NCBI RefSeq assembly: GCF_963921235.1
Contig: NC_086097.1
Coordinates: forward strand, 155,312,001 to 155,376,000
Direction of reading: 5' to 3'
DNA from: Mobula hypostoma
Taxonomy: Eukaryota
DNA length: 64,000 nt
Shown: positions 9,101-30,120 of the stretch, piece by piece
Layout of the letters: each line of letters starts with the position of its first letter
Position numbering within the stretch: the stretch's first letter is position 1
The notes under the pieces: model-generated
Seen by the model: the letters and a program-made list of their open reading frames with translations, nothing else
Database searches by the model: none
Told to the model about the DNA's origin: nothing
Program-made: the position numbers and the translations under genes

Positions 9101-9915
9101 TTGTGGATCCAGAATTAGCTTGCCCACAGAAGGCAAAGAGTGGTTGGAGATGGGTCATATTCTGCATGGGGATCAGTGACCAGGGGTGTGCCTCAGGCAT
9201 CTGTTCTGGGACCCCTTTTCTTCATCATTTTCATAAATGACCTGATTGAGGAAGTGGAGGGATGGGTTAGTAAATTTGCTGATGACACAAAGGTTGGAGA
9301 TGTTGTGGATAGTGTGGAGGGCTGCCAGAAGTTATAAGGAGACACAGGATACAAAACTGGGCTGAGAAGTGGCAGATAGATTTCAACCCAGATAAGTGTG
9401 AGGTGGTTCATTTTGGTAGAAAAAATATAATGGCAGAATATGGTATTGACGATAAAACTCTTGGCAGTGTGGAGGATCACAGGGATCTTGTGGTCAGAAT
9501 CCATATGACACTCAAAGCTGCTATGCAGGTTGACTCTGTGGTTAAGAAAGCATATGGTGCATTGGCCTTCATCAACCGTGGGATTGAGTTTAAGATCCGA
9601 GAGGCAATGTTGCAGCTATATAGGACCCTGATCAGACCCCACTTGGAGTTCTGTGCTCAGTTCTGGTCGCCTTACTACAGGAAGGATATGGAAACTATAC
9701 GAAGGGTGCAGAGGAGATTTACAAGTATGTTGCCAGGATTGGGGAGCATTCCTTATGAGAATAGGTTGAGCGAACTCGGCCTTTTCTCCTTAGAGCTACG
9801 AAGAATGAGATCTGACCTGATAGAGGTGTATAAGACGATGAGAGGCACCGATTGTGTGAATTGTCAGAGTCTTTTTCCCAGGGCTGAAATAGCTCACACG
9901 AGAGGCACATTTTAA
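6170..9915 (+). mobile_element. Near full-length CR1 LINE (second subfamily), decayed
   Basis: ORF1 ATG at 6321 with Cys-rich finger and leucine-zipper-like stretch, then IGDS esterase; ORF2 CFNARS..AITETW..YRPP, YIDFSKAFDKV, GVPQ.SVLGP, KFADDTK, LIRPHLEFCAQFWSP. Confidence 0.95.
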
Positions 9916-29185: not shown

Positions 29186-30120
29186 TAGAGTAGAGCTACT
29201 AGGACTTGATGTTTCAGTCCCTATGGTAAGTTGGCACTCTCGATGTTGGCAGTGGGTTTGGAGTGGTGACAAGGAGGGAGGGTAGGTACGTCATCAGGGT
29301 CATCAGGTGGGCACCCTCCTTCTTTGACGTTTCGTTGATAAGCCCACGACATCTCCAGAGGGCTCAACGGTGCTACCTGGCGTCCCAGATACACCCCCTT
29401 CAGTGCCATACCCTCCTGTCTTCATCTTGCAGCCCAGTTGTTGCCTTTCCTTTTAATCCAAATCAAATTGCTGCTTTCTTCTGCTGCATTTGACAAGGAC
29501 TTGATTGCTTGTTGGAGAGAGCGACCCCTCACCCCCATCTTCTTCAATAGACTGGTCGTAGATGTAGCAACGAATCCCCTGCATCCCTCTTCTACAGGGA
29601 AAATCTTGGTCTTCCAGCCATTCTGGGCAGCTTCAGTTGCCAGTTCAGAGTACTTGGTCTTTTTCCTCTCATAAGCTTCTTCGACACCATCTTCCCATGG
29701 TACTGTCAATTCCACAACATATACCAGCTTGGCTGTTGTGGACCACAGGACCATGTCTGGCCGGAGTGTTGTAGCCGCAGTGTCTGGGGGAAACACAAGC
29801 TTTTTTTCCGAGTCCACATCCATTTTCCAATCCCGAGCAACCTGCAGAATGCTTACATCTTTTGATGTTATATGCTGCTCTGGAGGTTGGCCTGCTGGTA
29901 CAAATCGTGTGATGTGGACAGCTCCTGCCAATGTTTGTGGGAGAGCATTTGTGGTGATTCGCCTCTGTTCCAAGATTGATGCCAGCTGTCTGAGAACTTG
30001 GTTATGCCACCAAGTGTACCGCCCCTGGGTGAGGCCCGTGGTGCATCCTGTTAAAATGTGCCTTAGTGATCCAGGTGCTTGACAAAGAGAGCAAGCGGGG
30101 TCTTCTCCCCACCACTGGTC
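29186..30120 (-). mobile_element. 5'-truncated RLE-type non-LTR retrotransposon (HERO-like, R2 group): CCHC knuckle, restriction-like endonuclease and 3' UTR
   Basis: Frame is open from 30120 to the stop at 29422: CSLC-x7-HILTGC, GRYTWWHNQVL, LRPDMVLWS, VELTVPWE, KKTKY, PVEEGCRGF; short (CTCTA)n tail; CR1 APE sequence rejoins across it. Confidence 0.9.
29291..29363 (-). ncRNA. Predicted non-circularly permuted hammerhead ribozyme with a kink-turn
   Basis: GAUGU-C-GUGGGC-UUAUCAAC-GAA-ACGUC-AAAGAA-GGAGGGU-GCCCAC-CUGAUGA-CCCUGAUGA; three stems can be drawn around intact core nucleotides; the proximal pairs of stem II are mismatched. Confidence 0.7.

Follow-up and report, generated by a model that had tools for sequence, protein, structure and literature searches.

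How does a hammerhead ribozyme fold when its blocks stand in a scrambled order and the far end of stem III has to lead into stem I? The question is raised by a locus in a 64,000-nt stretch of Mobula hypostoma DNA (contig NC_086097.1, positions 155,312,001 to 155,376,000), here called the window, for which an earlier note had proposed a kink-turn (k-turn) built into stem III of a permuted hammerhead. The reading that we favor, at a probability of roughly 65% and judged from sequence comparison, is that the k-turn would make the U-turn of a rewired hammerhead, and that read-through transcripts would be cut to unit length and their ends rejoined into a circular template. Positions below are those of the window, and features of the element lie on the minus strand.

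The host element and its kink-turn

The locus is a 5'-truncated copy of an RLE-type, HERO-like non-LTR retrotransposon (29189..30115) that carries the k-turn in its tail. It was recognized by sequence comparison and by the reverse transcriptase domain (PF00078, Pfam) present in a long copy, L187, from which we estimate a full unit of ~3.87 kb. The C-terminal end of the ORF (29422..30115, stop codon at 29424-29422) contains a zinc-knuckle-like and a restriction-like endonuclease region, both read by eye; a Pfam search of this endonuclease piece returned no match. The label HERO, taken from the earlier note, is presumed. An exact 24-mer of the element occurs 538 times in the genome and the flanks of the insertions vary. 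HERO has been described as an RLE clade of largely non-specific insertion (PMC4640811).

Relatives were gathered with a 40-protein alignment, and we used the best 80 of 337 confirmed metagenome loci (43-77% identity); a search of viral contigs found no relatives. A descriptor that used the core, stems I and III and helices P2, P0 and P1 only, leaving the k-turn, its NC helix and N17 unused, parsed 59 of 81 sequences (the best 80 of 337 relatives plus the window), and these parsed loci form 38 clusters at 90% identity. Eight of the 22 unparsed sequences have tails shorter than 200 nt; by eye, nine are damaged copies and five (L100, L109, L124, L165 and L167) lack the motif in the first 420 nt of the tail, L165 and L167 being a long branch among the protein relatives. 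In L138, L139, L143, L145 and L160 the element ends only ~27 nt past P0 and the ribozyme fold makes up nearly the whole tail; in many lineages of this type P0 starts within ~10 nt of the end of the protein match.

Read on the minus strand, every coordinate proposed for the k-turn (29363-29313) is correct, and the sequence follows the standard pattern of a Watson-Crick C helix, a 3-nt bulge, G·A and A·G pairs and an NC helix. Stem III, formed by GAUGU (29353-29349) and ACGUC (29330-29326), serves as the C helix. The bulged strand (29320..29325) supplies the bulge AAA (L1-L3, 29325-29323) and then G1b A2b A3b, which face G3n G2n A1n of the non-bulged strand (29354..29356) in the pairs G29322·A29354, A29321·G29355 and A29320·G29356. 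The NC helix, P3, pairs GCCCUCU (29363-29357) with GGAGGGU (29319-29313), two of its seven pairs being terminal G·U. The context of the k-turn is C:G at -1b:-1n, A:G at 3b:3n and G:U at 4b:4n. The k-turns of Drum and RAGATH-18 carry the same triple (PMC8191799, Table 1), and by rules that the same paper describes as borne out, k-turns of this kind should adopt the N3 form in metal ions; ion-folding rules are also given in PMC4382518. The window k-turn is thus predicted from its sequence to fold in Mg2+ alone.

A k-turn-shaped descriptor has two matches in 128 kb (both strands), this k-turn and one at 9475-9497 (+), and the chance of finding GA and GA in a given register is P ~0.006. Of 85 copies in the same genome, 76 have kept the G·A nucleotides. 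The motif recurs among relatives as well: the GA/NNNGA conservation that the earlier note had named as a check holds, with a strict k-turn in 26 of the 38 clusters and two more with 2n=U (best 80 of 337 relatives), leaving 10 of 38 without a strict k-turn (window included). Counted by locus, 40 of the 59 parsed loci have the strict form, two have 2n=U and 17 have none (best 80 of 337 relatives plus the window). The 28 k-turn clusters use 15 bulge triplets and 11 kinds of 3b:3n pair (best 80 of 337 relatives), the -1 pair is C-G in 21 of 28 (the same set plus the window), and stem III has 5 or 6 pairs in relatives. The bulge length is conserved as well, a length of 3 giving 11 matches in 22 representatives, lengths of 1, 2 and 4 none and a length of 5 two.

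Covariation was assessed in a MAFFT alignment of 29 sequences picked as k-turn type (the 28 k-turn clusters and L163). In this alignment 96.7% of cells are paired and 16 of 20 pairs change on both sides, among them 5 of 6 in the NC helix and 4 of 6 in stem III. The covariation score, which kinship inflates, is 0.735 against 0.05-0.16 in slid controls, and 0 of 500 shuffles reach it. K-turns occur on either side of the deepest split in the protein tree. The cluster counts are not independent, since the clusters share ancestry. Taken together, these results indicate that this is very probably a real architectural k-turn.

Losses of the k-turn are clustered in the tree, and one clade of 11 rows deviates: by eye, L144 has a k-turn with an extra A and L116, L147 and L151 have 2n=C, and the group of L117 and L133 has a 5-6 nt bulge on the opposite strand. 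The k-turn strand is one base short in L110/L128, and 3-5 nt bulges replace the k-turn in L150/L159, that of L159 being plain and 3 nt long. L163 keeps GA/GA in a helix that contains U·U pairs; L155, L161 and L170 appear to be decayed. Among known k-turns, U or C at 2n occurs naturally as well, as in Kt-23 (PMC5061560). The clusters with 2n=C, an extra A, opposite-strand bulges or the plain L159 bulge suggest that a weaker bend can serve, and the bulge replacements that the requirement is for a bend and not for the exact k-turn motif.

The rewired core and the geometry of the arm

The blocks follow one another in the order S-G-C with a short linker from stem I to stem II, as in a type-SGC hammerhead, and CUGANGA, GAAA, an NUH site, stems I and III and the 3-8 pair are all present. 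Cleavage or ligation is predicted directly after the stem III strand 29349..29353 and GUC (29347..29348, with C17 = 29348 in hammerhead numbering). Then come the 5' strand of stem I (29342..29347), a 3-nt linker (29341-29339), the 3' strand of P2, UCAAC (29334..29338, C11.1 = 29334), and the core GAAA (G12 = 29333) with the 5' strand of stem III (29326..29333). Beyond the k-turn, the 3' strand of P3 passes straight into the 3' strand of stem I (29312-29307) and on into the core CUGAUGA (29306-29300; 29300..29312 together). Stems I and III and P2 are assigned by parse and covariation.

The core was matched in 56 of 70 long tails, in 0 of 70 antisense and in 7 of 1750 shuffles. Among the 59 parsed loci (best 80 of 337 relatives plus the window), N17 is U, C or A in all 59 and never G. 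With a parser that allowed only C/U at 3, G/A at 8 and G/A at 12, the 3-8 pair in these 59 loci is C-G in 56, U-A in 2 and U-G in 1, U3-A8 being a compensatory pair, and GAAA with G12 is found in 55. Active cleavage at the GUC site is judged probable.

A direct stem II is absent, a point that the earlier note does not mention, a 10.1-11.1 pair occurring in 2 of the 59 loci (best 80 of 337 relatives plus the window). The strand after CUGANGA pairs with P0 (29299-29296 with 29396..29399) and the strand before GAAA pairs with P2, whose 5' strand GUUGA (29364..29368) holds the G partner of C11.1. Between P0 and P2 sits the P1 hairpin (29369..29395), without a spacer in a parse that imposed a gap-free junction and pairing at the first positions of its stems, so that a four-way junction replaces stem II; the first pair of P2, under the same constraint, is G-C in 19 and G-U in 3 of 22 representatives. 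Hammerheads have a metal site at A9/G10.1, and we infer that the P2 guanine takes the place of G10.1. The four-way junction might nevertheless fail to support catalysis, and we found no tested precedent for it in the literature. Rfam hammerhead models gave no match in the window at the gathering score or in four loci at E<=1.

Two other assignments of the core were rejected. In a classic stem II (CUGAUGA-CCC-UGAUGA with UUAUCA-AC) 20 of 22 representatives have no pair at position 1, and at the second CUGAUGA-like word (29297-29291) most copies read C at 29296. In the window family the nested minimum-energy fold prefers a rival pairing, 29363-29360 with 29345-29342, which extends P2, breaks P3 and stem I, and is not evident in distant lineages; in the folding model it is possibly an off state of this family.

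The earlier note had argued that the kink folds stem III back so that its 3' strand runs into stem I, and the spacings bear this out. Both strands of P3 join other stems almost directly, the 3' strand leading to stem I and the 5' strand coming from the stem II equivalent, and in each of the 42 k-turn loci (best 80 of 337 relatives) the P2-P3 and P3-stem I spacings stay at 6-8 and 12-14 nt. An uninterrupted helix of 9 pairs at the k-turn site was found in 0 of 59 loci (best 80 of 337 relatives plus the window). Hammerhead stems II and III stack coaxially (PMC10085705), and the far end of P3 must therefore come back to where stem I and P2 end. In the established hammerhead geometry stem III points from the core in the direction opposite to stems I and II, so that the arm would have to fold back, as a k-turn would make it do. 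By a crude estimate at 2.8 A per pair, a straight arm would span 64 A, one bent at 100 degrees 50 A and one at 50 degrees, the angle given for k-turns (PMC5061560), 28-30 A. Since no locus has a straight helix and the arm length is fixed, a bend looks required. The linkers at the far ends of stem I, P2 and the k-turn arm are 0-5 nt long, and stem I, P2 and the arm of stem III, k-turn and P3 would form a cage joined at the core and at the far ends.

The four pairs of P0 are extended by a second standard k-turn (29404-29400 with 29295-29288). Its non-bulged strand (29400..29404) has A1n at 29400, G2n at 29401 and U3n at 29402; the opposite strand (29288..29299, including the 3' strand of P0) has the bulge GAU at 29295-29293 followed by G1b 29292, A2b 29291 and C3b 29290, giving a C·U 3b:3n pair. 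In a duplex fold, a distal helix (29406..29416 with 29286-29277) closes the structure. Of the parsed loci, only the window, L092, L094, L098 and, by eye, L105 have this k-turn.

The loop of P1 has a palindrome of at least 6 nt in 23 of 38 clusters, with six core sequences, and a GACG tetraloop in 6 further clusters, among them the window (29384-29381; best 80 of 337 relatives plus the window in both counts). In 5000 shuffles the palindromes reached a mean of 3.6-4.3 clusters and a maximum of 12. Palindromic loops and GACG tetraloops are dimer-linkage motifs in retroviruses (PMC516450). By analogy, the P1 loops probably mediate dimerization as kissing loops.

Copy ends and the form of the RNA template

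All copies share a 3' end (29189..29200), the inferred start of reverse transcription, and where a copy is full-length, the 5' start of the element itself adjoins such an end. The earlier note had seen a tail of ~160 nt retained downstream of the predicted cut and had treated it as peculiar to this insertion; the tail is indeed there (29347-29189, 159 nt), but the whole family has it.

None of 60 tabulated loci ends or begins at the predicted cut. The window copy is counted twice among them; 30 were picked by the ORF and their ends checked, and 30 by a 24-mer downstream of the cut and their starts checked. The cut-site interval is normal (4-6 nt) in 711 copies, with one deletion and no longer insertions, and among the 100 matches listed it is the intact 5 nt in all. 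Template-jump or ligation scars at the cut were looked for in genomic copies and not found. The absence of scars and ends is equally expected if cleavage never takes place. In one case, L122, the contig stops exactly behind the GUC of the predicted cut; we treat this as chance because about 12 contigs end somewhere in the motif.

A probe for the 5' end scored 40 loci, of which 30 were retrieved; 27 of the 30 reach the start of the unit, and 25 of these 27 full-length copies are directly preceded, head to tail, by their own 3' end, with an indel-free 3'-5' junction in 22 of the 25. The junctions lie around position 1504 in L191-L216 and at L187:1803. The upstream repeat measures from 33 nt to >1.5 kb; in 14 of the 25 it extends back across the cut site, in none does it start there, and in 10 it contains a second complete core, giving tandem copies with a ribozyme in each repeat. 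By contrast, such a 3' end was found before 0 of 77 truncated copies, and on this ground self-targeted insertion was rejected as the source of the tandems. After the usual 3' end the next base is G in 33 of 72 copies against a background of 19%, and four copies extend 5 nt beyond it into 5'-start sequence; L171 was left out of this count, its run being a tandem junction. In distant loci (65 with at least 300 nt, from assemblies that may collapse repeats) the tail is followed by an ORF start or a 5' motif in at least 14, or in 15 with L100, which has no parsed motif.

Other features were noted at the ends of copies. In L192 and L201 the 3' piece upstream leads into a segment of the element in inverted orientation, much as in twin-priming inversions. 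The 5' start of the element carries a conserved motif (L187:1815-1860), a hairpin between GA-containing strands, which recurs in L093, L116, L125, L126, L128, L130, L141, L148 and L163, in these nine loci ~155-225 nt past the ORF-end match, and may be another structured RNA element or a promoter. In the window (29195-29183) and many other copies the last 3-5 bases are often repeated at the 3' end, which suggests slippage or target annealing at priming.

The difference between full-length copies (25/27) and truncated copies (0/77) points to a template that was cut and rejoined into a circle, and from these sequence patterns a circular template is quite probable. Cutting at both ribozymes followed by resealing would account for the tail and the tandem patterns together. 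The earlier note had proposed that the extended stem III holds the products together and thereby explains the retained tail. The arm does stabilize the duplex (-14.1 against -2.8 kcal/mol), but the P0 arm adds more (-21.2 kcal/mol); tethering is thus real in principle, but rejoining into a circle explains the retention better, and in the folding model the use of tethering is likely to be the alignment of the two ends for ligation. Retrozymes offer a precedent for cutting followed by circularization, with self-ligation of only 1-3% against 30-80% with RtcB (PMC7229834).

The mechanism that we propose would run as follows. With a k-turn at 50 degrees, the stem III arm would be bent back toward stem I and P2. 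A copy with a second ribozyme upstream would be transcribed and the transcript cut at both sites. Three helices (the k-turn arm, P2, and P0 with the second k-turn) would hold the ends of the unit RNA together, and the reverse reaction or an RtcB-type ligase would seal them. The element protein would then prime reverse transcription internally, always 159 nt beyond the seal, and run round the circle, often for more than one lap.

Alternative explanations and known systems

A rather unlikely alternative is that the k-turn is architectural in an RNA that is not cut in the life cycle, the fold being a platform for the element protein and the tandems arising when reverse transcriptase, on reaching the 5' end of one RNA, jumps to the 3' end of another that is kept beside it by kissing P1 loops. 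The reverse transcriptase of R2 does jump from template to template end to end. Such an RNA would fit the lack of scars and of copies that begin or end at the cut, as well as the P1 palindromes in 23 of 38 clusters and GACG in 6 more (best 80 of 337 relatives). Against it stand constraints specific to catalysis, in that N17 is never G, positions 3 and 8 covary and G12 is kept in 55 of 59 loci (best 80 of 337 relatives), as well as the 22 of 25 junctions without an indel and the four copies that pass the 3' end into 5' sequence.

Protein control was a further suggestion of the earlier note. It could take the form of a k-turn operated by SNU13/15.5K or another L7Ae-family protein that turns cleavage or ligation on and off. 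Standard k-turns generally bind L7Ae proteins, which read G1b, G2n, L1 and L2 (PMC5061560). Two features of the 28 k-turn clusters (best 80 of 337 relatives) would suit a bound protein: L3 is U in 19, although L3 is solvent-exposed and makes no contact within the RNA (k-turn literature, PMC5061560), and 3b:3n is a Watson-Crick pair in 5, which predicts protein-dependent folding (PMC8191799). The U bias may reflect a protein contact or shared ancestry. The second k-turn in the window's clade would also be in keeping with such a switch. On the other hand, the window itself has A:G at 3b:3n and A at L3, 17 of the 28 clusters obey the ion-folding rule (naive p = 0.011; best 80 of 337 relatives), with another kind of 3b:3n pair in the remaining 6, and the protein-read G2n is U or C in some lineages and the whole k-turn missing in others. 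SNU13 control is not obligatory, because several lineages replace the k-turn with a bulge. Judged from sequence, binding of an L7Ae-family protein is plausible, a required switch is not, SNU13 or L7Ae as a switch is unlikely, and a protein-operated k-turn as the explanation of the whole is less likely still than the uncut platform.

We consider it very improbable that cleavage serves to silence or process a linear mRNA, a role that hammerheads in 3' UTRs can have, with only uncut RNAs being copied and the tandems stemming from long linear transcripts of a tandem master. Every copy is seamless across the cut site, as it would then be, and the 10 of 25 tandem copies with two complete cores could have been read through. 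The upstream repeat, however, could only shorten under this scheme, yet it ranges from 33 nt to >1.5 kb and is found in distant lineages as well, and a cut upstream ribozyme should leave copies that start at the cut, which were seen in 0 of 25. A purine-rich loop that matches the k-turn pattern by chance is next to impossible as an explanation: the region is G/A-rich (G 0.31, A 0.25) and the window has one other descriptor match, but conservation and covariation refute it.

This leaves the k-turn as the U-turn of a ribozyme that would cut and reseal a circular template as the preferred reading. Whether these elements also make up an autonomous R2-like clade with circular resealed RNA, a cage hammerhead of undescribed wiring and dimerization through retrovirus-like kissing loops is, from the sequences compared, about an even bet.

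Among known k-turns the closest are the standard simple ones of HmKt-7, Drum and RAGATH-18 (PMC8191799), which have the same 3-nt bulge, G·A/A·G pairs and C:G, A:G and G:U context; unlike these, the window k-turn sits within stem III, 5 or 6 pairs from a hammerhead active site. Replacement of the k-turn by other bends in some lineages is also seen in the lysine riboswitch and RNase P (PMC5061560). In the openly accessible literature searched, we found no paper on a natural k-turn in a hammerhead or retrotransposon ribozyme, nor one describing an RNA that combines HERO with a hammerhead. If our reading is true, this would be a natural k-turn built into a hammerhead.

The type-SGC hammerhead HRIMA-1 (PMC10085705) shares the S-G-C order, the core nucleotides and a stem I linker of ~3 nt. 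In the known SGC RNAs, found via metatranscriptome contigs, stem II is direct (G10.1-C11.1) and a further helix joins the free sides of stems I and II (PMC10085705). The window RNA lacks both: here stem II is split over P0 and P2, stem III contains a k-turn and the host is an animal retrotransposon. The same paper raises the problem of the far-apart ends, and neither "kink" nor "k-turn" occurs in its accessible text and supplement. The arm described here would be a concrete answer to the topology of scrambled hammerheads that was left open for type-SGC RNAs (PMC10085705), and the hammerhead active site would then tolerate losing stem II as one helix.

Non-LTR retrozymes and Penelope-like elements likewise have a hammerhead in each tandem repeat, and their RNA is cut to unit length and circularized (PMC7229834; bioRxiv 10.64898/2026.07.22.740005). 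They use type I or minimal hammerheads in short non-coding repeats or in GIY-YIG elements; the element described here has a ~3.9-kb protein-coding unit with a reverse transcriptase and a restriction-like endonuclease region, and is neither short, non-coding nor non-autonomous. A circular template with internal priming has been described for retrozymes (PMC7229834), and in the present case it would belong to a protein-coding LINE-like element and would possibly be dimeric. A ribozyme that clamps its own ends would also be of direct interest for circular RNA production.

Finally, the 5' ribozyme of R2 similarly frees an RLE-type element from a co-transcript, but it acts at the 5' end of a linear RNA (PMC13580325), whereas here one ribozyme per repeat would set both ends. 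In the dimer linkage hairpins of retroviruses (PMC516450), the palindrome or GACG loop is like that of P1, which is here part of a non-LTR ribozyme and is predicted to dimerize in the same way.
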